From the UHGV virus genome UHGV-1376702: a DNA stretch of 44,254 nucleotides, one strand, 5' to 3'. Positions 5,211-29,661 of the stretch are shown here, piece after piece. A program made the translations under genes and the position numbers. Position 1 is the stretch's first letter. The number at the start of each line of letters is the position of its first letter. The notes beneath the pieces are model-generated. The model saw nothing but the letters and a program-made list of their open reading frames with translations, searched no databases and had not been told where the DNA came from. The DNA is from a virus.

Positions 5211-7166
5211 ATGGCGTTAATTAGATTAGTAGCTCCAGAGCGGGTATTCTCCGACTTGGCGAGCATGGTAGCATATCCAAACTTTCAGGTACAGGACAAG
5301 ATTATCCTGCTGGGCAGCGCCGGTGGGGACTTCACCTTTACTACTGCTGCGTCGGTAGTGGATAACGGAACTGTGTTTGCTGTACCCGGTGGGTATCTGC
5401 TTCGTAAATTCGCGGGCCCGGCATACAGCTCCTGGTTCAGCAATTGGGCGGGCATAGTCACGTTCATGAGTGCACCTAATAGGCACCTGGTTGTGGACAC
5501 AGTCTTGCAGGCCACGAGTGTGCTCAACATCAAAAGCAACTCTACGCTAGAGTTTACTGACACCGGAAGAATCCTGCCGGATGCTGCGGTTGCACGTCAG
5601 GTGCTTAACATTATCGGCTCGGCACCATCGGCGTTCGTGCCGTTAGCAGCGGATGCCGCAGCGGGCAGCAAAGTCATTACGGTGGCTGCCGGGGCTTTGT
5701 CTGCGGTAAAAGGTACGTACTTGTATCTTCGCTCTAACAAGCTGTGCGACGGTGGGCCTAACACGTACGGTGTAAAGATTTCCCAGATTAGGAAAGTGGT
5801 GGGAGTCAGCACCTCCGGTGGCGTCACCAGTATTCGGCTGGATAAAGCGCTGCACTATAACTACTACCTGTCTGATGCCGCGGAAGTAGGCGTCCCTACA
5901 ATGGTAGAGAACGTAACCCTAGTATCTCCGTACATCAACGAGTTCGGCTACGACGACTTGAACCGGTTCTTTACTATCGGTATCTCTGCCAACTTTGCCG
6001 CGGACTTGCACATCCAGGACGGGGTTATTATTGGCAACAAACGCCCCGGGGCTTCTGATATAGAAGGGCGTAGTGCTATCAAGTTCAATAACTGCGTAGA
6101 TAGTACCGTTAAGGGTACGTACTTCTACAACATCGGATGGTATGGGGTAGAGGTGCTCGGCTGCTCAGAGGACACGGAAGTACACGATATCCACGCCATG
6201 GACGTACGCCACGCAATCTCTCTGAACTGGCAGAGCACTGCAGACGGGGACAAGTGGGGAGAGCCTATCGAGTTCTTAGGCGTTAACTGCGAAGCCTACA
6301 ACACAACCCAAGCTGGGTTTGATACTCATGACATTGGTAAGCGTGTGAAGTTCGTTCGATGCGTTTCGTACGACAGTGCTGACGATGGGTTCCAAGCGCG
6401 CACTAACGGGGTAGAGTACTTGAACTGTCGAGTTTACCGTGCAGCTATGGACGGGTTCGCCTCCAACACCGGTGTAGCCTTCCCTATCTATAGGGAGTGC
6501 CTAGCTTATGACAACGTACGCTCTGGCTTTAACTGCTCGTACGGCGGTGGCTACGTTTATGACTGCGAGGCTCACGGTAGCCAGAATGGTGTGCGAATCA
6601 ACGGGGGCCGTGTTAAGGGTGGTCGGTACACCCGCAACTCCAGCTCTCACATCTTCGTTACTAAGGACGTAGCTGAGACAGCGCAGACACCCCTGGAGAT
6701 TGATGGCGTGAGCATGCGCTACGACGGTACCGGGAGAGCTGTGTACTTCCACGGGACTATGGGCATTGACCCTACCCTGGTATCTATGTCCAATAACGAC
6801 ATGACCGGTCACGGCTTGTTCTGGGCATTGCTGAGCGGCTACACCGTTCAACCTACGCCTCCGCGCATGTCCATGAACTTACTGGATGACACAGGTATCC
6901 GTGGAGTGGCAACTCTGGTGGCTGGTGAGGCTACAGTCAACGCCCGTGTACGCGGAAACTTTGGCAGCGTAGCTAACTCCTTCAAGTGGGTGTCTGAGGT
7001 TAAGTTGACGCGGTTGACCTTTCCCTCTAGTGCTGGGGCCTTGACGGTTACTGGCGTAGCTCAGAACCAGGATGTGCCTACACCTAATCCGGACCTAAAC
7101 AGCTTCGTGATTAGGAGCAGTAACGCAGCGGACGTATCCCAGGTAGCCTGGGAGGTGTATCTCTAA
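5211..7166 (+). CDS. tailspike / probable polysaccharide depolymerase (beta-helix)
   Basis: 651 aa; start directly follows the endolysin stop; Gly/Asn/Val/Thr-rich sequence with repetitive short beta-strand pattern (e.g. NCVDSTVKGTYFYNIGWYGVEV) typical of right-handed beta-helix tailspikes; last structural-type gene before the non-coding terminus. Confidence 0.6.
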   Translation: MALIRLVAPERVFSDLASMVAYPNFQVQDKIILLGSAGGDFTFTTAASVVDNGTVFAVPGGYLLRKFAGPAYSSWFSNWAGIVTFMSAPNRHLVVDTVLQATSVLNIKSNSTLEFTDTGRILPDAAVARQVLNIIGSAPSAFVPLAADAAAGSKVITVAAGALSAVKGTYLYLRSNKLCDGGPNTYGVKISQIRKVVGVSTSGGVTSIRLDKALHYNYYLSDAAEVGVPTMVENVTLVSPYINEFGYDDLNRFFTIGISANFAADLHIQDGVIIGNKRPGASDIEGRSAIKFNNCVDSTVKGTYFYNIGWYGVEVLGCSEDTEVHDIHAMDVRHAISLNWQSTADGDKWGEPIEFLGVNCEAYNTTQAGFDTHDIGKRVKFVRCVSYDSADDGFQARTNGVEYLNCRVYRAAMDGFASNTGVAFPIYRECLAYDNVRSGFNCSYGGGYVYDCEAHGSQNGVRINGGRVKGGRYTRNSSSHIFVTKDVAETAQTPLEIDGVSMRYDGTGRAVYFHGTMGIDPTLVSMSNNDMTGHGLFWALLSGYTVQPTPPRMSMNLLDDTGIRGVATLVAGEATVNARVRGNFGSVANSFKWVSEVKLTRLTFPSSAGALTVTGVAQNQDVPTPNPDLNSFVIRSSNAADVSQVAWEVYL

Positions 7167-7972: not shown

Positions 7973-8240
7973 GGGCCATAGGGGCGTGCTCTGCCTTGCT
8001 TATTTTGTGCGCCTCAGTGGGCCTGCCTAGTGCCTGTCTAGTGCCTGCGCAGTGGGGCCATAGGGTATGCCTAGTGCTATCCCTAGTGTGCACTAGGCTA
8101 TCCACTGGCTATCCTTAGTGCTTTACATTGTGCTAATTATGTGCTACGCTGCGCGCTCCCCACTAGGGCGCACATCCACCACACCGCACTATCCAGCGCT
8201 ATCCCTTTGCTCTTACTTTCATTCGAAAGCTATTATGAAA

Positions 8241-8260: not shown

Positions 8261-8527
8261 GGTTTTAGGGCACTATATACACTACTTAATACTAGTCCTT
8301 ACTAGTCCCTACTAGGCACTCACTAGTATGGCCCTGTGCCTACGTAGTAGGCTGCCATAACTACATAGTCACCGCATCACTACGTTCCTTCACTTACGTT
8401 ACGTCACTACGTTCTGCTTTATGTAGTATTAGATAGTATTGGCTAGACGTGGCTAGTATTGGCTACAGCCAGTGTCAGCACAGTGCTATCCCTAGTGGCT
8501 ATCCCTATAATATATAAGGAGTTATAC

Positions 8528-9082
8528 ATGTTACCATCTAGTCGGGCTACGGCTAAAGCCACTGGTAGTACATACTACTACACAGGGAAGCACTGTAAGT
8601 ACCAGCACACGGCAAAGCGCCTCACCAGTTCAGGGGAGTGCTCCGAGTGCTTTAAGATTAGGAGTACCAGCCCAGCTACTAAGGAGCGTATGCGGGAGTA
8701 CCATAAGGTTTATCAGGTACGTAAGGCAGAGGCCTTGAGAGAGTACCGTAAGACACGCCGACCTAAGCACATTATGACAGAGGAGCAATTACAGCGTAAG
8801 GTTCGCCACAATGCGCGATACCGTGCTGCGCGTACTCAATCCGTACCCTCATGGTATGGCGAGTGGGATGAGTTTGTTATGTTGGAGGCTATCGCTTTAG
8901 CAGCCGAGAGGGCGGAGTGTACTGGCATAGCGTGGCATATTGACCATATGCTACCGCTAAAGGCTAAAGAGGTGTGCGGCTTACACTGTGCGGGGAACAT
9001 TCAGGTGATACCCGCAACGCTTAATACACATAAGTGTAACAGGCTGCTATTCACGGAGCCGTTGGAGTGGCTAAAGGCATAA
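8528..9082 (+). CDS. HNH endonuclease with N-terminal zinc ribbon
   Basis: Start refined to ATG 8528 (RBS AAGGAG, TATAAT just upstream); Cys-x-x-Cys pairs near the N-terminus; C-terminal HNH motif AWHIDHMLPLKAKEVCGLHCAGNIQVIPATLNTHKCN. Confidence 0.7.
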   Translation: MLPSSRATAKATGSTYYYTGKHCKYQHTAKRLTSSGECSECFKIRSTSPATKERMREYHKVYQVRKAEALREYRKTRRPKHIMTEEQLQRKVRHNARYRAARTQSVPSWYGEWDEFVMLEAIALAAERAECTGIAWHIDHMLPLKAKEVCGLHCAGNIQVIPATLNTHKCNRLLFTEPLEWLKA

Positions 9083-9088
9083 ACTTGA

Positions 9089-9127
9089 GGTAATACAGTA
9101 CTATAAATGCTGTATTACCTTTTTTTA
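9089..9127 (+). terminator. rho-independent terminator
   Basis: Perfect 10-bp stem GGTAATACAG / CTGTATTACC with an 11-nt loop followed by T7, directly after the HNH gene stop. Confidence 0.6.
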
Positions 9128-9263: not shown

Positions 9264-9292
9264 TTGACAATAGCAGTAAACGCTTTTATAGT
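9264..9292 (+). promoter_or_regulatory. sigma70-type promoter (TTGACA-N17-TATAGT)
   Basis: Perfect -35 hexamer, 17-bp spacer, 5/6 match at -10; predicted start near 9299-9300. A weaker candidate (TTGCTT-N18-TATATT) lies at about 9138-9167. Confidence 0.6.
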
Positions 9293-9541
9293 TTGAACCA
9301 TGTTGCGGAGCAGTGTAGCGCCTAAAGGTGCTCTGACCACTAACCCTAGATACATGATAGTAGTAAGCGTGCCGGACGTTATCACCGGGGTTCTGAGACA
9401 AACCACACTGTCGAGGCGAGAGCAGCTCGCTCCTCTGAATCGAGGGAACAAGGCGCGGAGAGTATCCCGCAAAGAGCATATAACATAGCGTAGCAGTAAC
9501 AAGGCTGCGCTAGATTATGTTCTCTGAGAGGTAAGAAGATT

Positions 9542-9739
9542 ATGCGCAAAGCAAAGCGTTTAGCTTTACGGCGGAATATGCAGTTATCACTGAATCCCAC
9601 CGACAACGTGCCACTCACTGTGAAGCCAAGTAAACAAGGCCTGAGCTGTGAGCACAGGGTGAGAGGTAAGCAAAAGCAACGTGCTGGCAGTAAACAACCT
9701 TCGGGGTGGTCTACTATGAATGCACAGTTCGGACACTAA
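9542..9739 (+). CDS. small basic protein (hypothetical)
   Basis: 65-aa ORF with RBS GAGAGGTAAG 5-9 nt upstream; very Lys/Arg-rich; coding status uncertain. Confidence 0.3.
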   Translation: MRKAKRLALRRNMQLSLNPTDNVPLTVKPSKQGLSCEHRVRGKQKQRAGSKQPSGWSTMNAQFGH

Positions 9740-9743
9740 TTAC

Positions 9744-9775
9744 AGCCTATAGCATCCTATGGGGTGCTATGTGAA
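9744..9775 (+). promoter_or_regulatory. conserved hairpin element, copy A
   Basis: AGCCTAT + 7-bp stem (AGCATCC/GGGTGCT, one G-U) with 4-nt loop + ATGTGAA; about 40 nt upstream of the start at 9815; second copy at 10533. Confidence 0.4.
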
Positions 9776-9814
9776 GTAATTCGTAAAGTAAACAACCAAT
9801 CAAAGGGGTGCATT

Positions 9815-10399
9815 ATGACTAATTCCACCAATTCAACAGGTAAAGTATTCAAGCTCACCGCTGCTGGCAGCATTCGTAAAGCGCTGGGCGACGTAGTGGA
9901 AGCAAAGCGTAACATCACTATCAGCGCGCTCTTCCACGGCCTGATTAGCAGCAACGTATCATGGGCTACGGATATGCAGCGTAGCGATGCCGCTGACTTC
10001 GATATGGTGCTGCGTACGCTGTTGCCTATCAAGCTCAACAAGGAGTCCGGCAAATATGAGTTCAACGCTAAGAAGTGCTATGTGTCGGCTGAAAAGCTGG
10101 GTATCGAACTGGACACTATGCGTCTGGACTACAAACAAGCTGACAAGCAAGGCCGCGAAGTAATCGTAGCTAGATTTTATAGCTCCTGTATGGCCCTGTA
10201 CGCCGCCGAAGCAGAGCAGGTGAAGAATGACGCACTGGATGCCGATACAGTGCGCCTGCAAGCGCTGGGGCGCGTTAAAAACGCTATTAAGAAGGCTAAA
10301 GAGACTGGCGTAAGCGATGCTGACCTCGTGTCTATGCTGGTATCGCAAGGCGTGGACGTACGCGCTGTACTGGACGCAACTTTGAAGGCAGCGGCATAA
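9815..10399 (+). CDS. hypothetical early protein
   Basis: Start refined to ATG 9815 (RBS AAAGGGG); 195 aa; no recognisable motif. Confidence 0.55.
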   Translation: MTNSTNSTGKVFKLTAAGSIRKALGDVVEAKRNITISALFHGLISSNVSWATDMQRSDAADFDMVLRTLLPIKLNKESGKYEFNAKKCYVSAEKLGIELDTMRLDYKQADKQGREVIVARFYSSCMALYAAEAEQVKNDALDADTVRLQALGRVKNAIKKAKETGVSDADLVSMLVSQGVDVRAVLDATLKAAA

Positions 10400-10532
10400 T
10401 TTATAAAGTTCCGGTTATCAAGTGGTGGGCCTTGTGCCCTGCGGCCAACGATGCCGACGCTTTCGATATCCCTGTGCGGGCAATAGCTCAAAAATGGGTG
10501 TACGAGGGATTGGGCGAGTATCTCTAGTGGCA

Positions 10533-10564
10533 AGCCTATAGCGTCCTACGGGACGCTATGTGAA
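10533..10564 (+). promoter_or_regulatory. conserved hairpin element, copy B
   Basis: AGCCTAT + perfect 7-bp stem (AGCGTCC/GGACGCT) with 4-nt loop + ATGTGAA; about 25 nt upstream of the start at 10589; compensatory A:T to G:C change relative to copy A. Confidence 0.4.
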
Positions 10565-10588
10565 TGCAACTGGCGTATGAGGTGGCAT

Positions 10589-10810
10589 ATGAAAGCAATA
10601 CTGGTTTATCCGGGTCATGAACTCTGGCCCGTGTGGTGCAATCGCAAGTACGACGAATACAACTACACTGTGGTTATATTCTCTGACAAAGACACCAATC
10701 AGGAATCCCCATTCGAATTTGTGGATACCTACACCGAAATGGCTGCCCGCACTGTGCTGGACGCCGTTAATCTTGGCATCATCACCGATTGGAGACAACT
10801 ATATGGTTAA
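10589..10810 (+). CDS. hypothetical small acidic early protein
   Basis: Start refined to ATG 10589 (RBS GAGGTGG); 73 aa, Asp/Glu-rich. Confidence 0.5.
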   Translation: MKAILVYPGHELWPVWCNRKYDEYNYTVVIFSDKDTNQESPFEFVDTYTEMAARTVLDAVNLGIITDWRQLYG

Positions 10811-11066
10811 TGTATTCAACATCATTGTGACCAGCGCTATGCTGGTGCTGGGCAACGACGTAAACAACCCAATCCCATACTGCACAGTGCAGTTGCAGCA
10901 ACCCGCAACGCAGGAACCGCAGCCGCGCCCTGAGTATGACCTCTTTGAAGACCCCGAGGGCGGCTGCAAAGAGCTAGGCGCGCGTATTCTTGCCGCGGTG
11001 CAGGAGCAGTACCCGGACGCCGCCGTTACGCTTACGGTGGACGGTAAGAGCAACAGCGATATTTGA
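10803..11066 (+). CDS. hypothetical small early protein
   Basis: In-frame ATG 10803 overlapping the previous stop (ATATGG); hydrophobic N-terminus then acidic Pro/Gln/Glu-rich region; the upstream part of track ORF 10617..11066 overlaps the previous gene out of frame. Confidence 0.45.
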   Translation: MVNVFNIIVTSAMLVLGNDVNNPIPYCTVQLQQPATQEPQPRPEYDLFEDPEGGCKELGARILAAVQEQYPDAAVTLTVDGKSNSDI

Positions 11067-11144
11067 GGTTGGGCATGCACGGAAAGAATCCTGAGACGCT
11101 GCTAAAGCTAGGCTGCACCCAACCACTCCTACTGGGAGGCTCAC

Positions 11145-11489
11145 ATGATGACGGTAGATGAAGCTGCTGTTTTCATGTGGAAGCTGCTGGAAACGCAGGG
11201 CAAGTGCGGGTGCCCTTGGGGAACATTCAAAGAGGTTCCTAATGAACTCAAGCAAATCATACCGGTCGAGCGCAGACTCCTCCGTGTTCGTAGGCAGGAC
11301 TCTACGGTGGTGCTCACAACCTATCGCGAGTATACAGAATCTGCCGCGCGGCAGTTGCAAGAGCACATTCAGTTCGATGTGGTTGCAGCACTGCTACGGT
11401 ACGGGTATCGTGGAGCATATACAAGATTTAGGGCGGCAGTACGGGCATATTATAAGCAAGCGCAGATCGCTGCATGGTACGCACGCTGA
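11145..11489 (+). CDS. hypothetical early protein
   Basis: 114 aa; RBS GGAGG before ATGATG; protein-like composition, unlike the overlapping frame. Confidence 0.5.
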   Translation: MMTVDEAAVFMWKLLETQGKCGCPWGTFKEVPNELKQIIPVERRLLRVRRQDSTVVLTTYREYTESAARQLQEHIQFDVVAALLRYGYRGAYTRFRAAVRAYYKQAQIAAWYAR

Positions 11490-11538
11490 CTTAGTGGTTG
11501 GCGATGAACTCAAAGAACCTATTCAGGAGCAAACTAAA

Positions 11539-13215
11539 ATGCAAGAGACTAACACAGCACCTATCGAATGGAAAATCGTATTACCGGAAGGTGCAAACGC
11601 ACTGCCGATTAAAGAATCAATGTATTCCAGCGGTGATTACTGGACCCCGTTCCAGGACTTGCAAATGCAAGGGGAGGACCATCCCCACACTGAGGGTCCG
11701 CTGCAGGTGCTTATGGGTCTCCGCACTGTCAGTGCGCACACTCCAGGCTTAGAGGTGACTATAGGCGGGGCACTGCACCCAGAGTATCGCGAATCAACGA
11801 TGACGCTCGGCCCGTTGCAAAAGGTGGACCTGTACCGGTCCGGAACTTTCTGCGAACTCTTTGAACCGGTGCGAATCACCATAGACAGCAAGTTCTGGGA
11901 ACGCCGCCGCGACTTCTATGAGGGCGAGGATGTAGTGGTTGAGCGCGTAGTTGCTTGCGTCGAAGAATTCACAGGTTACAAGGTGCACAAGCAGGCCGTG
12001 CAGTTATTTGAGCGCATCATGCTTGCACCAGAAGAGCAGCAGCGCCGCTTATACACTGGCTACGATTACGGCCGCCACACCCGCGATGGCAACTTAGCTG
12101 CGCTGCTCATGAAGTTGCACGGATTCATAGTATCTAGATTCGCCGTGCCATTGGGCTTTGGTTTCCGCAACGGTGAGCCTATCGTGATGCTGGGGCAGCC
12201 GCGGATGCACAAGGACTTCGCCGCAGTTACCGAGTACCGTTGTGTGGAGATGCGCGTAGGTAAGTGGCTCGCTAACTACTACGGCAATGGCGTAGACTTC
12301 CGCGATGCTATCGAAGACCTCAAGGCTATGAACGTAGAGCCTACAACGTACCTGTGCAAGACCGAGCAGGAATGGTACGACTCCTACGAGAATGGCCCGA
12401 GTAGCTGCATGAGTGGATACTCATTTGAGCATAGCCCGGTGCGGGTGTATGCTACTACCAGCCACGGGCTGCCGGACAACGGGCTGCGCCTGTTCATCCA
12501 GTACACCGGGGAACTGTTCGGGGATGACTTCGAAGTGCAGGCACGGGCAATCGTTAACACAGAAACTAACGAGTACGTCCGCGCTTACGGCAACGCTGCG
12601 GATGCAATCCTGCGGGGGCATGGGTACACCAAAAACATTGAATGTCTCGAAGGGGTAATGCTGGCGCGAATACCGCACCCAACATACAACGGCGCAGTGC
12701 TGATGCCATACCTAGATAGCAGCCAGTGCGGCGTAGATGAGTATGGGGATGATGCCTTTGTAATCCGTGATGCTTATGAGTACGAGGCACAAGACTCAGA
12801 AGGATACATCTACGTAGGCACTGAGTCTGCTGGGTGCTGCTGCTGTGAATGTCGCTACTCTGTAGATGACATGCAGGAGACCGCAGATGGTGATATGGTC
12901 TGCGACGGCTGCGTAGAAGAAGGGGATTTTGTGTACGTAGTTGGGCGTGATGGTCTGCATAATCGCTGGAGCTGCACCTGGTCTGATTACCACGACGCCT
13001 ATGTATACGACGAGGACATAGAGCGCTGCGAAGTAGAGGGTGTAGTGCACGACCAAGAGGAACTGGTGTTTGCACAGGACCGGCAAGTGCTTATTGAACA
13101 CGCAGAAGAACACCCAGTGCACGGGTTAATTCTCACTGAGCATGCAGCTGATTGCTTGGGAGAGAAGTACCTGGGAAACGATGAAGATGAAGAAGAAGCA
13201 GAGGAGGCAGCTTAA
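11539..13215 (+). CDS. large early protein of unknown function (Cys cluster, acidic C-terminal tail)
   Basis: Start refined to ATG 11539 (RBS AGGAGC); the 127-codon 5' extension in the track has junk-like composition. 558 aa; CCCCEC and CDGC clusters near the C-terminus; ends NDEDEEEAEEAA. Confidence 0.55.
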   Translation: MQETNTAPIEWKIVLPEGANALPIKESMYSSGDYWTPFQDLQMQGEDHPHTEGPLQVLMGLRTVSAHTPGLEVTIGGALHPEYRESTMTLGPLQKVDLYRSGTFCELFEPVRITIDSKFWERRRDFYEGEDVVVERVVACVEEFTGYKVHKQAVQLFERIMLAPEEQQRRLYTGYDYGRHTRDGNLAALLMKLHGFIVSRFAVPLGFGFRNGEPIVMLGQPRMHKDFAAVTEYRCVEMRVGKWLANYYGNGVDFRDAIEDLKAMNVEPTTYLCKTEQEWYDSYENGPSSCMSGYSFEHSPVRVYATTSHGLPDNGLRLFIQYTGELFGDDFEVQARAIVNTETNEYVRAYGNAADAILRGHGYTKNIECLEGVMLARIPHPTYNGAVLMPYLDSSQCGVDEYGDDAFVIRDAYEYEAQDSEGYIYVGTESAGCCCCECRYSVDDMQETADGDMVCDGCVEEGDFVYVVGRDGLHNRWSCTWSDYHDAYVYDEDIERCEVEGVVHDQEELVFAQDRQVLIEHAEEHPVHGLILTEHAADCLGEKYLGNDEDEEEAEEAA

Positions 13216-14261
13216 TGTTCTTGAATCCGCATGGGATTGATATGCAGCTGCTCTTGCAGATACTGCGAACGCACCGGCCTAGCTGGGCAAGCACTAAGTG
13301 GTTCGATCCGCTGCTTATGCAGGCGCTGGGTAGTGGTATGCACTACGTAAAGGATAAGCACGGGAACTACTTCGTGCTGGTGGGGGACTCAGAGCAAAGT
13401 GATGTAGCGTTTACGTCTCATCTCGATACGGTGGCCCGCCCAACCAGCGCTGCACCGGACGTCGGCTGCACTAACAAGGGCGTGCTGTTCGTAAAGAATC
13501 CGCAACAAGCTGACTGCTTGGGGGCGGACTGCGGTGCCGGTGTCTACCTGATGCTGGAGATGCTGCGGCGGGGTGTGCACGGACGCTACTGCTTCTTCGT
13601 GGATGAGGAGGTTGGCTGCGAAGGCAGCGCTGCATCGGTCAAGGATGACACTGGATTTTGGACTGGTGTCAAGGCGATGATTAGCTTTGACCGCCGCGGA
13701 GATGGTATCATTACGCACCAGCGGTACATGCGCTGCTGCTCTGATACCTTTGCCAAGACTCTGGCAGAGCGCCTAGGACGCACGGAGCAGCACTTACAAA
13801 AGGGTGTGTATACTGACTCAGCCGAGTTCGTCGGCATCATCCCTGAGTGCACCAACGTCGGTGTAGGGTACATGCACGAGCACACTCCGGATGAGGTGCT
13901 GGACCTGAACATCCTGGGGAAAGTGCTTGAGCGGGTACTGCAAGATGGTACGTTCTCGCACCTTCCGATTGAGCGGGACCCGAAGGTAGTAGAGCCGGAC
14001 CAATGGCTCTCAGCATCGACGCTCAGTTTACGGCAGCCATGGGATATGCCGCCAGACGAGGACCCGCAATTGCTGGCAGCGTTCCGTGTAGTGTCGCAGC
14101 TTTCTAAACAACAACTGGTTAGCTGGGTGCAGGAGAATCCAGAGAAGGCGGCGGAGTACATAATGGTGTTCTCCGATTACGGCTTTAAAGAAGAACTGAT
14201 TGAATTAGGCACCCGAGTCGTAGAAGACTGGGGTGGATACGATAATATTGTGGAGGGTTAA
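13215..14261 (+). CDS. di-zinc metallopeptidase-like protein (clan MH, M20/M28/M42-like)
   Basis: 348 aa; ordered motifs SHLDTV (His-x-Asp), GADCGAG (bridging Asp), DEEVGCEGS (Glu-Glu), FDRRGDG, GYMHEH match the metal-ligand pattern of M20/M28 aminopeptidase/deacylase folds; recognised by eye only. Confidence 0.45.
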   Translation: MFLNPHGIDMQLLLQILRTHRPSWASTKWFDPLLMQALGSGMHYVKDKHGNYFVLVGDSEQSDVAFTSHLDTVARPTSAAPDVGCTNKGVLFVKNPQQADCLGADCGAGVYLMLEMLRRGVHGRYCFFVDEEVGCEGSAASVKDDTGFWTGVKAMISFDRRGDGIITHQRYMRCCSDTFAKTLAERLGRTEQHLQKGVYTDSAEFVGIIPECTNVGVGYMHEHTPDEVLDLNILGKVLERVLQDGTFSHLPIERDPKVVEPDQWLSASTLSLRQPWDMPPDEDPQLLAAFRVVSQLSKQQLVSWVQENPEKAAEYIMVFSDYGFKEELIELGTRVVEDWGGYDNIVEG

Positions 14262-27192: not shown

Positions 27193-29661
27193 ATGATTAG
27201 CGCCCTGAATACGGTTGTAGTACCAGAGGAAGCACTGGTGAAACGCCAGCTGGAGCTCGAAGAGACCTATAAGATTCGCGGAATCGAGCGGGCACGTAAG
27301 CTGATTACGGACGCATTGCAGAACGGCGGGATTATGAACCTGCCGATGACGCAGCGTATGCTCACCTCGGCATATGAGGTGGCTGCTGCCGCTATCGACG
27401 AGATGCGAAACGTCAAAGTCCCGGGCATTGGTGGTAAGTACCGCCGGTTCCTGCGCTTAGTCCCCTTGGATGTCCTGACCACACTGAGCCTGTGCACAAT
27501 GTTTGAAGCGTTTAGCGTCGCCCCCGGCGAGTCTGCTAGTCGCCGCCAGACTGCGCAGGCGGTAATGTCCGCACTGGGCCGGAACGTGCAGTCAGAGCTA
27601 CTGGCTCTGCAGTTACGCAACGTAGCCCCAGCGTACATGGACCGAGTATATGAGTATCTCACAGAGCGCCGTACGAAGTCCCCTACGCACATCCTGCGTA
27701 CGCTCCGTGCCAGTGCCGAGAATGTGCACTATGGGCACGAGCCTTGGACCAATGCCCAGAACATCTCCGTAGGGCGTCTGCTGTGTGCCGCGGTGTTTGA
27801 GACTGGCTTGTTCCAGTGGAAGACAGGTAGCGGGAACCTGAGCATGCTCTACCCGGCTGATGACGTTATGGAGGCCTTCCAGAAACTGGTGGAATCTGCC
27901 GACACTGTAACGATGAAGCCGCCTATGCTGGTCCCCCCGGTGCAGCACACCACTATGTGGGATGGTGGGTACCTTACTCCTATCGACAACCGCGGTACGT
28001 ACCATAACTCGCACATCGACCGCTCCAGGCTGCGTGAAGTGGCGGAAGCATTTAAGTCCGCGGATGGCATCAAGAAGGCGCTTAATAAGGCACAGGAAAC
28101 CCCATACCGTATTAATAAGCGCATACTGGAACTGGTGCAAGAAGCACGGGCCCTGGGTATTGGGATAGGTATGCCCCGCTCAATACCGGAGCCGAAGCCT
28201 GAGTGGTACTTGGATGGTGTACCAAAAGAGAACTACACCGAAGAAGAACTGGACCGCTTCGGTGAGTGGAAGACGCGTATGTCCCTGTGGTACAGTGCTG
28301 ACCGTAAGCGTGTGTCGCAACTACGCAGCCTTCTGACTACGTTGGAGATGGCAGAGGAATTCAAAGATGAGAAAGCCCTGTACTTCCCGACTTGTGTGGA
28401 CTGGCGCTACCGCCTGTACTTCAAGTCCTCGTTGCACCCGCAGGGTTCTGATTTGCAGAAGGCTCTGCTGGAATTCGGTAGAGGTAAACCTCTTGGAGAG
28501 AGAGGGTTGTTCTGGCTTAAAGTGCACGTCGCCACTTGCTTTGGTTATGACAAAACCCTATTCGAAGACCGCGCAGATTGGGTGGATAAAAATATGGCAG
28601 TTGTCCGCTCAGTTGCAGAGAATCCATTTGATTCGGACGCTTTTAAGCAGGCCGATTCACCGTGGTGTTTCTTGGCAGCAGTGCTCGACCTGGTGGCTGC
28701 TCTGGATTCTCCGTGCCCAGAAGAGTACATCTCCAGAACTCCGGTTGCTATGGACGCCACAAACTCAGGTGGACAGCACCTCTCAGCGCTCCTGAGAGAC
28801 CCTGTAGGCGGTCGTCTGACGAACCTGTACTGGGAAGGTAACGACAAGAAAGCGGACCTGTACATGGACGTGAAGCGCCGCACGGATGAGAAGGTGATAC
28901 TGGACCTGGACAAGGAGGATTTCGTTATCCAGAGCACGTACTGGAGAGAGAACGAAATCACCCGCAGCATGACCAAGCGCCCAAGTATGACCTACTTCTA
29001 CAGCGCCACGGTGCGTAGCTGCAGCGACTACATCTTTGAAGGCGCTTGCGCTGAGGGATACGAGGGTACCGATACTAACAGTCTGTGGAACCTGTCGTGC
29101 TACCTGGCACCGCGTATGCGCGCCGCTATAGAGGAGGCAAACCCCGCTGCTGCGGCAGTTATGGGGTACTTGCAGAATCTCGCTAGACGCGTACCGGCAA
29201 GCCAGCACCTGCAGTGGTATACGCCGCTGGGTGGGCTCGTAATGAACCGTTACACGCAGCGTGAAGAAGTGCGTGTACGTATTGACTGCATGAACCTGTC
29301 AGCGGTACTGGTACACAACCGGGACTTCAAAACTTGTAACAAGCGCAAGGCGGCCTCCGGGATTGCCCCAAACTTTGTGCATAGCCTGGACAGTACGCAC
29401 TTGATGATGGTGCTCTGCGCTGCGGAGGGGTTGGACATTGTGCCTATTCACGACTCGCTGGCTACTCACGCAGCTGACGTCGACACTATGCATAGGCACA
29501 TCCGTGAGCAGTTTGTGCGTCTATATGAAGAGAATGACCTGCTTGGCGATATTACTCGGGCAGCGGCAGCAGCCGGGGCAGACTTGACGGACCTGGACAT
29601 GCCAGAGGTGGGCACTTTGGACATCCGGCAAGTGCTAGAATCCCCGTTCTTCTTCTGCTAA
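27193..29661 (+). CDS. single-subunit DNA-directed RNA polymerase (T7-like)
   Basis: 822 aa; catalytic motifs DATNSGGQHLSALLRD (T7: DGSCSGIQHFSAMLRD) and PNFVHSLDSTHLMM (T7: PNFVHSQDGSHL). Confidence 0.95.
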   Translation: MISALNTVVVPEEALVKRQLELEETYKIRGIERARKLITDALQNGGIMNLPMTQRMLTSAYEVAAAAIDEMRNVKVPGIGGKYRRFLRLVPLDVLTTLSLCTMFEAFSVAPGESASRRQTAQAVMSALGRNVQSELLALQLRNVAPAYMDRVYEYLTERRTKSPTHILRTLRASAENVHYGHEPWTNAQNISVGRLLCAAVFETGLFQWKTGSGNLSMLYPADDVMEAFQKLVESADTVTMKPPMLVPPVQHTTMWDGGYLTPIDNRGTYHNSHIDRSRLREVAEAFKSADGIKKALNKAQETPYRINKRILELVQEARALGIGIGMPRSIPEPKPEWYLDGVPKENYTEEELDRFGEWKTRMSLWYSADRKRVSQLRSLLTTLEMAEEFKDEKALYFPTCVDWRYRLYFKSSLHPQGSDLQKALLEFGRGKPLGERGLFWLKVHVATCFGYDKTLFEDRADWVDKNMAVVRSVAENPFDSDAFKQADSPWCFLAAVLDLVAALDSPCPEEYISRTPVAMDATNSGGQHLSALLRDPVGGRLTNLYWEGNDKKADLYMDVKRRTDEKVILDLDKEDFVIQSTYWRENEITRSMTKRPSMTYFYSATVRSCSDYIFEGACAEGYEGTDTNSLWNLSCYLAPRMRAAIEEANPAAAAVMGYLQNLARRVPASQHLQWYTPLGGLVMNRYTQREEVRVRIDCMNLSAVLVHNRDFKTCNKRKAASGIAPNFVHSLDSTHLMMVLCAAEGLDIVPIHDSLATHAADVDTMHRHIREQFVRLYEENDLLGDITRAAAAAGADLTDLDMPEVGTLDIRQVLESPFFFC

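Follow-up and report, generated by a model that had tools for sequence, protein, structure and literature searches.

Four small genes at positions 9815–10399 (A), 10589–10810 (B), 10803–11066 (C) and 11145–11489 (D), all on the plus strand of the 44,254-nt phage genome analysed here (the window), form the conserved backbone of an early operon, with the variable cargo located in the gaps that flank them. They are ordinary uncharacterised early genes, as no characterised protein or solved fold matched any of them. We propose that they encode early proteins that bind other molecules, with host-takeover, early-regulation, modulator or (for C) envelope roles, a tentative assignment that we regard as quite possible.

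The source genome is that of a circularly permuted Drulisvirus (KP34/KpV41-like) Klebsiella phage with a phiKMV-type layout. All four genes lie downstream of a sigma-70-type early promoter (TTGACA-17-TATAGT, 9264–9292, plus strand, 11 of 12 consensus matches), the probable driver of the operon, and a promoter is annotated at the equivalent position in KP34. Genes A–D are the start of an early operon read by the host RNA polymerase, and to this extent the original prediction holds; its positional analogy with T7-like phages is loose, the genome being of phiKMV type with an RNA polymerase gene (27193–29661) ~17 kb downstream of genes A–D. Upstream of the cluster, a 65-aa ORF (9542–9739, plus strand) encodes a very basic protein (pI 11.9) orthologous to KpV41 gp01 (phrog_32970, E 4e-45) and is possibly a fifth small early gene. 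Its dN/dS is ~0.1–0.17 and it is included in the gene call on metagenome scaffold L047; full-length or nearly full-length copies occur in only ~17 of 42 loci, with weak partial matches in ~9 others. A search of E. coli genomes returned no DNA match, and literature searches found no functional study of Drulisvirus or KP34 early genes or of the A–D proteins.

All four ORFs encode proteins and evolve under purifying selection. Their coordinates were predicted exactly, and the proteins are 194, 73, 87 and 114 aa long, the largest being one residue shorter than the 195 aa originally given. Each gene starts with ATG and has a Shine-Dalgarno motif 5–9 nt upstream (GGGGTG for A, GAGGTG for B, GGAG for C and GGGAGG for D). 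Across 42 related loci, dN/dS was 0.07 for A, 0.20–0.34 for B, 0.10–0.12 for C and 0.15 for D, compared with 0.17 for the neighbouring gene E, and a scan of the genes segment by segment found no positive (diversifying) selection, with a maximum of 0.27. An independent gene caller predicted the same four genes, with identical lengths, on scaffold L047. The KP34 orthologues of genes A, B, C and D are gp2, gp5, gp6 and gp9, and the KpV41 orthologues are gp02, gp04, gp05 and gp09, respectively, with amino-acid identities to KpV41 of about 86–97% (B shares 63% with KP34 itself), and their order and early-operon position are as in the KpV41 and KP34 annotation tables and the 42 related loci. All four matched PHROG profiles over essentially the entire profile (A, phrog_5277, E 9.6e-103; B, phrog_7657, E 1.6e-49; C, phrog_7036, E 4.1e-52; D, phrog_6167, E 2.4e-54), each of these being a family of unknown function listed as “hypothetical protein”. 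The proteins had been described as free of detectable motifs, and indeed Pfam, NCBIfam and PADLOC scans gave sub-threshold hits only, while PDB sequence and profile searches with all four returned nothing below E 0.004. The best PDB match, at that value, was a short ankyrin-like motif (LLISxGxDV) aligned to designed repeat proteins and was rejected, as was the database name “Cro/CI repressor”, which is unsupported. The description of two of the proteins as acidic also stands: B has a pI of 4.5 and C of 4.05, with A (pI 9.0) and D (pI 9.7) being basic.

Comparison with related phages separates these genes from their surroundings. Genes A and D are common to Klebsiella, Pectobacterium, Vibrio, Enterobacter, Pantoea and Proteus phages, with A present in 340 and D in 355 phage records from Klebsiella, Pectobacterium, Vibrio and other hosts. 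The order A…D–E–peptidase, in which the peptidase is M28-like, is also found in PPWS1 and Vibrio phage R28Z, and phiKDA1 and Loshitsa2 keep D in the absence of E. The A–B and C–D gaps of relatives carry DUF987, DUF7267, HNH and other genes, whereas both gaps are empty here; unlike its KP34/KpV41 relatives, this phage has no gp4-like genes, DUF7267 gene (gp7) or gp8-like gene between the A–D orthologues. DUF7267 is present in 42 of 42 close relatives and was lost in this phage through a deletion of ~300 nt or more, which also took the gp8-like gene and left a 28-codon remnant (11075–11161, plus strand) overlapping the start of D. The phage is thus a natural deletion variant, and the DUF7267 gene, on which no paper was found, is therefore dispensable. 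A KP34 gp3-like frame of 43 codons (10396–10527, plus strand, phrog_10968) is intact and has ATA in place of the ATG start. Genes A–D are backbone-like, and unlike fast-turnover counter-defence cargo, in that they evolve under strong purifying selection and occur almost throughout the genus, with A and D also retained across genera.

The model of A consists of helices apart from one beta-hairpin, with a conserved N-terminal domain (residues about 12–95), a 53-residue helix and a C-terminal helix-loop-helix, and the core has a dN/dS of 0.04–0.05. Across 17 divergent members of the A family there were no invariant polar or catalytic residues, hence A, the one protein for which this was assessed, is probably not an enzyme. 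A LapG or transglutaminase-like cysteine protease, the best of the sub-threshold family hits, was considered for A and rejected, since the score (15.5 bits, with the cut-off at 320; PDB 4u65, E 0.15–0.31) was far too low and the wider family does not conserve residues C125 and H41. When 1.84 billion representative proteins were searched exhaustively with a profile of the A family, 33 matches were obtained, nearly all of them single-domain proteins of ~200 aa or less or shorter fragments; one match of 310 aa has no Pfam family, and the only match with informative Pfam domains, an ankyrin protein, aligned to a short C-terminal motif alone and was set aside. In a single GenBank record, an A orthologue is called “putative DNA-binding protein”, which is an unverified annotation. 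For D, AlphaFold gave a high-confidence alpha/beta model, and Foldseek against viral models (BFVD) recovered only proteins from related phages such as phiKDA1, VP93, LIMElight and PM16, all of them uncharacterised. Neither this model nor that of A had a neighbour among solved structures (PDB). Basic character was observed in 14 of 17 sampled relatives of A and 8 of 10 of D, so it is not family-wide in either case.

Gene B shares its last 8 nt with the start of C and is the fastest evolving of the four. Using tblastn, it was confined to Drulisvirus, where it has been lost by A–B fusion in three loci, is absent in one and is truncated in one, and phages of the L033 and L038 types lack C; B and C are nonetheless near-universal in ~240 Drulisvirus genomes. 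UniRef and GenBank list B orthologues as “DNA topoisomerase II large subunit” or “DNA helicase”, names that were discarded for a 73-aa protein with no Pfam or NCBIfam match that is found in Drulisvirus only.

Protein C has a hydrophobic, signal-peptide-like N-terminus (residues 2–17) and two invariant cysteines (C27 and C55). Residues 2–16 average 2.09 on the Kyte-Doolittle scale over 15 residues and 1.48 in a 19-residue window, which is below the usual 1.6 and marks a marginal membrane helix. When a Sec-type pattern of small residues at −3 and −1 was sought, V-L-G was found directly before N18. A positively charged n-region is absent, with no Lys or Arg ahead of the hydrophobic stretch, and the phiKDA1 homologue carries a Lys within it. 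One member of the C family is named “Secreted protein” in UniRef.

Two copies of a conserved bipartite RNA hairpin were detected on the plus strand between the early genes, the first (9735–9784, MFE −18.6 kcal/mol, z −3.3) ending 31 nt upstream of A and the second (10524–10573, MFE −26.6 kcal/mol, z −5.3) ending 16 nt upstream of B. Among 26 distinct copies of the motif, 7 of the 17 counted pairs had changed on both sides, 95.9% of cells were paired compared with 27–48% in slid controls, and none of 500 shuffles reached the observed covariation. The motif was found in Drulisvirus loci only, being absent from four loci of other genera, and had no Rfam match. Both hairpins have the structure of RNase III-type sites, namely an extended conserved stem with an internal loop, and are candidate processing sites.

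Under the proposed reading, A–D would probably be small proteins that bind other molecules during the opening minutes of infection. A and D would most likely bind a host component or nucleic acid conserved across gamma-proteobacteria, as host-takeover or early-regulation factors. B would most likely be a dispensable, host-specific modulator that is translationally coupled to C. C, in turn, is predicted from its hydrophobic N-terminus to be most likely exported or membrane-anchored, possibly with a periplasmic disulfide between the invariant cysteines, and would then have its role in the envelope, perhaps much as superinfection-exclusion proteins do. A more ambitious version, which we consider somewhat unlikely, is that A and/or D found a new class of host-takeover proteins in KMV-like phages of Enterobacterales and Vibrio, and that both persist across these phages by virtue of disabling or redirecting some conserved host machinery, for which RNA polymerase, RecBCD and nucleoid proteins are among the candidates.

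One alternative, itself rather unlikely, is that A and/or D serve the early programme of the phage and have no host target. They could, for instance, act in regulating the handover of transcription from the host RNA polymerase to that of the phage, in anti-termination over the ~18 kb region transcribed by the host enzyme, in mRNA processing at the conserved hairpins, in the start of replication or in protection of DNA ends. Cross-genus conservation, strong constraint and an unvarying gene order with E and the gene for the M28-like peptidase are consistent with such roles, although phiKDA1 and Loshitsa2 have D without E. The two proteins are mostly basic, and an A orthologue bears the “DNA-binding” label; however, that label is unverified, and no nucleic-acid-binding fold was detected when one was looked for, with winged-helix and GntR-like domains giving no significant structural superposition on A or D. 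Likewise, the structured RNA conserved just upstream of A and B would suit a role in processing, but it was found in Drulisvirus loci only and is missing from the four loci of other genera.

Counter-defence was, along with host takeover, a function first proposed for the cluster, by comparison with the DNA-mimic anti-restriction proteins and host inhibitors at the equivalent position in T7-like phages, and the four genes were seen as the most likely place for it. That one or more of them, most plausibly B or C, counters restriction-modification, BREX or other immunity by mimicry or binding now appears unlikely. The genes do lie at the head of the early operon, B and C have a low pI throughout (4.1–4.7), and B is limited to the genus, evolves fastest (dN/dS 0.2–0.34) and is dispensable in some phages; the adjoining gaps are, furthermore, hot spots for accessory genes. 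Nothing in the proteins themselves, however, points to mimicry. A and D are basic and kept across genera, C looks exported, and the acidic residues of B (15.1% Asp+Glu, net charge −5.4 over 73 aa, about −0.07 per residue) and C (13.8%, −8.5 over 87 aa, about −0.10 per residue) leave both with a charge far under that of T7 Ocr (29% Asp+Glu, about −0.24 per residue). No Pfam match to Ocr, ArdA or another annotated anti-defence family was found at E up to 1, nor did a PHROG with an annotated function match at a limit of E 0.01. The M1-23 gene of phage PhiM1, in which mutations lead to ToxIN escape, is a different gene from A–D. In their evolution, too, the genes resemble backbone: no segment is diversifying, with dN/dS at most 0.27, and B and C are near-universal in the genus and not patchy, although strong conservation would be compatible with a role against a widespread defence system. 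The variable slots adjoin A–D and stand empty in this phage. DNA mimicry is thus unsupported, and host takeover by A–D is plausible.

A further alternative, that not every one of the ORFs is a gene, D for example being an out-of-frame artefact within a longer gene, is extremely improbable and, for D, effectively refuted by a comparison of dN/dS in the overlap. A long ORF (11158–13215) overlaps D and is annotated as a 655-aa protein in KP34, KpV41 and phrog_6980; the annotated protein overlaps D by 248 nt, and its frame is open in most relatives. Within this overlap, however, dN/dS is 0.15 in the frame of D and 1.19 in the other, hence D is the coding frame, and variable sites by codon position in the D frame number 56, 38 and 92. 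All 43 of the 43 sequences keep the D frame intact, and D homologues occur in five or more genera, with a confident AlphaFold model. The likely true start of E is at 11539, giving an acidic protein of 558 aa (11539–13215, plus strand) with AGGAG 9 nt upstream; gene callers place the start at the equivalent of 11539, and in PPWS1 E begins right after the stop of D. The 655-aa form of E (gp10) overlapping D (gp9) is therefore likely an over-extension and a widespread annotation error.

For a phage early region, these results are unsurprising, yet Drulisvirus phages rank with the therapeutic candidates most widely used against Klebsiella pneumoniae, and the annotation of their entire early region reads “hypothetical”. 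The analysis corrects the 655-aa gp10 annotated over gp9 and shows a natural DUF7267 deletion variant. The split between backbone (A–D) and cargo (the A–B and C–D gaps) suggests that takeover functions are likelier in the former and counter-defence functions likelier in the latter. A and D are the best candidates for target discovery, since A is more constrained than E (0.07 compared with 0.17) and D similarly so (0.15), and both are found across genera and have models unlike any solved structure.

Several known early systems offer a comparison. T7 gp0.3 (Ocr) resembles B and C in being a small protein of low pI from an early gene read by host RNA polymerase, but here B is the second gene, C looks exported and the first gene, A, encodes a basic protein, and B and C have about half the acidic content of Ocr. 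In phage T4, superinfection exclusion is brought about by Sp and Imm, two small early proteins of the envelope. C, to which alone this analogy applies, is similarly early, ~80–100 aa in size and provided with an N-terminal hydrophobic segment, although no sequence similarity was detected and the export of C is a prediction. T7 also carries RNase III processing hairpins between its early genes (R0.3, R0.5, R1.1 and others). The hairpins upstream of A and B differ from these in a stem of only ~17–19 bp that has no Rfam match, but like them are intergenic, have bipartite stems with internal loops and lie just upstream of polycistronic early genes.

The four small early open reading frames under study, A (9815–10399), B (10589–10810), C (10803–11066) and D (11145–11489), are real, constrained and early-transcribed genes without a relative of known function or structure. 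As originally predicted, they encode small proteins (194, 73, 87 and 114 aa, all with an ATG start and a Shine-Dalgarno motif), two of which are acidic (B, pI 4.5; C, pI 4.05), with A (pI 9.0) and D (pI 9.7) basic. The early location also held, as the region containing them is opened by a near-consensus sigma-70 promoter (9264–9292) that agrees with the annotated promoter of Klebsiella phage KP34. Among 42 related loci fetched for comparison, A and D were intact in all, C was present in 40 and B in 41, including three A-B fusions with only the last 20 residues of B and one truncated copy. Pairwise dN/dS across these loci was 0.07 for A, 0.20–0.34 for B, 0.10–0.12 for C and 0.15 for D, with no value above 0.27 in a segment-wise scan; the neighbouring 558-aa gene E, located 3′ of D, gave 0.17. 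An independent gene caller predicted the same four genes on metagenome scaffold L047, and the reading that some of them are artefacts is effectively excluded.

D is overlapped by a long open reading frame (11158–13215), within which KP34, KpV41 and phrog_6980 annotate a 655-aa protein from the equivalent of 11242. Across the 248-nt overlap, dN/dS was 0.15 in the frame of D versus 1.19 in the other frame, and variable columns at D codon positions 1, 2 and 3 numbered 56, 38 and 92. The E homologue of Pectobacterium phage PPWS1 begins directly after the D stop, and gene callers on scaffolds L047 and L048 put the E start at the equivalent of 11539, with AGGAG 9 nt upstream. D is the real gene where the frames overlap, and the N-terminus of E in databases (KP34 gp10, KpV41 gp10, phrog_6980) is over-extended by ~99 residues, the true start of this acidic protein most likely being 11539. 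The annotated extension (within 11158–11538) evolves like non-coding sequence, out of frame with D. E itself (11539–13215) is Cys-rich in its C-terminal region and has an acidic tail; it matched nothing in Pfam and nothing convincingly in the PDB. An M28-like peptidase of 348 aa lies at 13215–14261 (phrog_4191; PF04389 at 24.1 bits, cut-off 21.3), and the D-E-peptidase block is kept in three phage genera. Homologues of D outside Drulisvirus lack its CGC motif, making an essential family-wide metal site unlikely.

By megablast, 248 phage records matched 9500–12000, almost all Klebsiella Drulisvirus at 80–95% identity, the nearest being OU509534 (94.9%) followed by KpV41 (92.8%). Pfam placed a DnaB-like helicase, family A DNA polymerase, T7-type RNA polymerase (27193–29661), portal, terminase and K1-capsule lyase tailspike in typical phiKMV-type order, hence the window is a complete, circularly permuted genome; comparison with KpV41 puts its physical left end near 8080. 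In the tailspike (5211–7166), three domains of a K1 capsule-specific polysaccharide lyase were recognised (N-terminal, Rider and C-terminal), and K1-capsule Klebsiella are probably the phage’s target. Between the left end and the early promoters sits an endonuclease VII-like gene (8459–9082; phrog_1035, E 3e-22; listed with a TTG start), followed by a terminator with a 14-bp stem (9087–9121). In KpV41 this interval holds no gene, and the endonuclease gene is probably a homing-endonuclease insertion.

A–D are orthologues of KP34 genes 2, 5, 6 and 9 and of KpV41 gp02, gp04, gp05 and gp09, and belong to PHROGs 5277, 7657, 7036 and 6167, each annotated “unknown function”. Since the sequencing of KP34 they have been deposited with hundreds of genomes under the annotation of hypothetical protein, and literature searches found no publication on them; the finding is an ordinary one of uncharacterised early genes in a well-sampled phage genus. 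Their description as motif-less was borne out in Pfam, NCBIfam and PADLOC (nothing significant), and PDB sequence and profile searches returned nothing convincing. As to the fold search proposed as a check, models of A and D match no solved structure. Several assignments were rejected: a LapG protease hit to A was weak, at 15.5 bits where the cut-off is 320, and involved residues that lack conservation, and the names that databases give to some orthologues, “putative DNA-binding protein” (A) and “DNA topoisomerase II large subunit” or “DNA helicase” (the 73-aa B), came without detectable similarity.

The C-terminal 26 residues of B are nearly invariant and its N-terminal half is variable; its stop overlaps the C start by 8 nt, suggesting translational coupling. 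Natural in-frame A-B fusions (L024, L031 and L040; equivalent to 10380–10750) show a deletion between “R(A/T)VLDA” motifs common to A and B near their C-termini, which removes B residues 1–53 and the whole A-B gap and retains the overlap with C. The N-terminus of C is hydrophobic (VNVFNIIVTSAMLVL; Kyte-Doolittle 2.09 over 15 residues, 1.48 over 19) and is followed by a variable Pro/Gln-rich linker; two cysteines of the protein are invariant, and its motifs GGCK and LTVDG are conserved. Together with one UniRef entry naming a member of its cluster “Secreted protein”, these sequence features make export plausible rather than established. The acidity of both proteins is moderate (Asp+Glu 15% in B, 14% in C) compared with 29% in T7 Ocr, and does not suggest the DNA mimicry originally proposed by analogy with T7-like phages.

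Gaps between these genes vary widely among relatives, from 64 to 613 nt for A-B (189 nt in the window) and from 378 to 1121 nt for C-D (78 nt in the window). Their contents include the 43-aa KP34 gp3 gene, DUF987 proteins, DUF7267 (KP34 gp7, phrog_5136), HNH endonucleases and a fast-evolving gp8-like gene, among others. DUF7267 occurs in all 42 close relatives and is missing from the window alone in that comparison, leaving a 28-codon remnant (11075–11161); the gp8-like gene is also lost, from the C-D gap at 11067–11144. The same deletion is found on L047, with four more places that are similar, whereas L048 and L049, with 100% identical D, retain DUF7267, gp8 and an HNH_3 endonuclease at the site, so the deletion is real and recent and DUF7267 appears dispensable, at least in this lineage. 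In a Vibrio phage, the gene immediately upstream of the D homologue has a related “RFNIRGV” motif, which suggests that DUF7267 and D are an old gene pair. The gp3-like frame (10396–10527; 43 codons, phrog_10968) is intact and 95% identical to KpV41 gp03, with ATA in place of its ATG start and ATAA replacing the ATGA stop/start overlap with A, and is probably untranslated or weakly translated in this phage. A DUF987 protein (YeeT-like; PF06174, E 7e-14) lies in the C-D gap of 10 of the 42 loci (e.g. L002, 3001–3240) and is absent from the window; in E. coli this family occurs in cryptic-prophage islands adjoining CbtA/CbeA toxin-antitoxin genes. It is unlikely that one or more of A–D serve in counter-defence, and if such cargo is kept in the early region of this lineage, the variable slots, emptied here, are the likelier place.

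Searching 50,697 phage records by tblastn, A was found in 340 (Klebsiella 219, Pectobacterium 51, Vibrio 42, plus Dickeya, Erwinia, Aeromonas and Pantoea) and D in 355 (the same host genera, plus Enterobacter phiKDA1 and Erwinia Loshitsa2), while B was exclusive to Drulisvirus (236 records) and C occurred in Drulisvirus, phiKDA1-like phages and a few others (251 records). PPWS1 (Kotilavirus) and Vibrio phage R28Z (Maculvirus) keep the order A ... D-E-(M28-like peptidase). This makes A and D core early genes across genera, and the distribution makes B and C genus-level core genes. An A-family profile recovered only 33 relatives from 1.84 billion representative proteins, nearly all single-domain (up to ~200 aa) or shorter fragments, with a Pfam domain in one of the ten scanned (an ankyrin-repeat protein). 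Alignment of 17 divergent relatives showed a conserved N-terminal domain of ~90 residues and no invariant polar residues, which argues for A being a binding protein, not an enzyme. That A or D serves the phage’s own programme is unlikely. The reading we prefer, tentatively and at somewhat less than an even chance overall, is of small proteins that probably act by binding rather than catalysis. For A and D, the likeliest part would be in taking over the host or in early regulation, through action on a host component or nucleic acid that is conserved among gamma-proteobacteria, with B most likely a dispensable host-specific modulator and C most likely acting at the envelope. What interest remains is in A and D, as conserved proteins with models unlike any solved structure, as well as in the side observations.

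Two copies of a conserved bipartite RNA hairpin were detected, just upstream of A (9735–9784; MFE −18.6 kcal/mol, z −3.3) and of B (10524–10573; MFE −26.6 kcal/mol, z −5.3). They share the core TATAGCRTCC-UAYG-GGGYGCTATG, surrounded by an outer stem whose sequence differs between copies with complementarity kept. Across 26 distinct copies in related phages, 95.9% of cells were paired versus 27–48% in slid controls, seven pairs had changed on both sides, and none of 500 shuffles reached the covariation observed. The hairpins had no match in Rfam. Their role may be in RNase III-type processing or in stabilising mRNA, by analogy with the sites between the early genes of T7.
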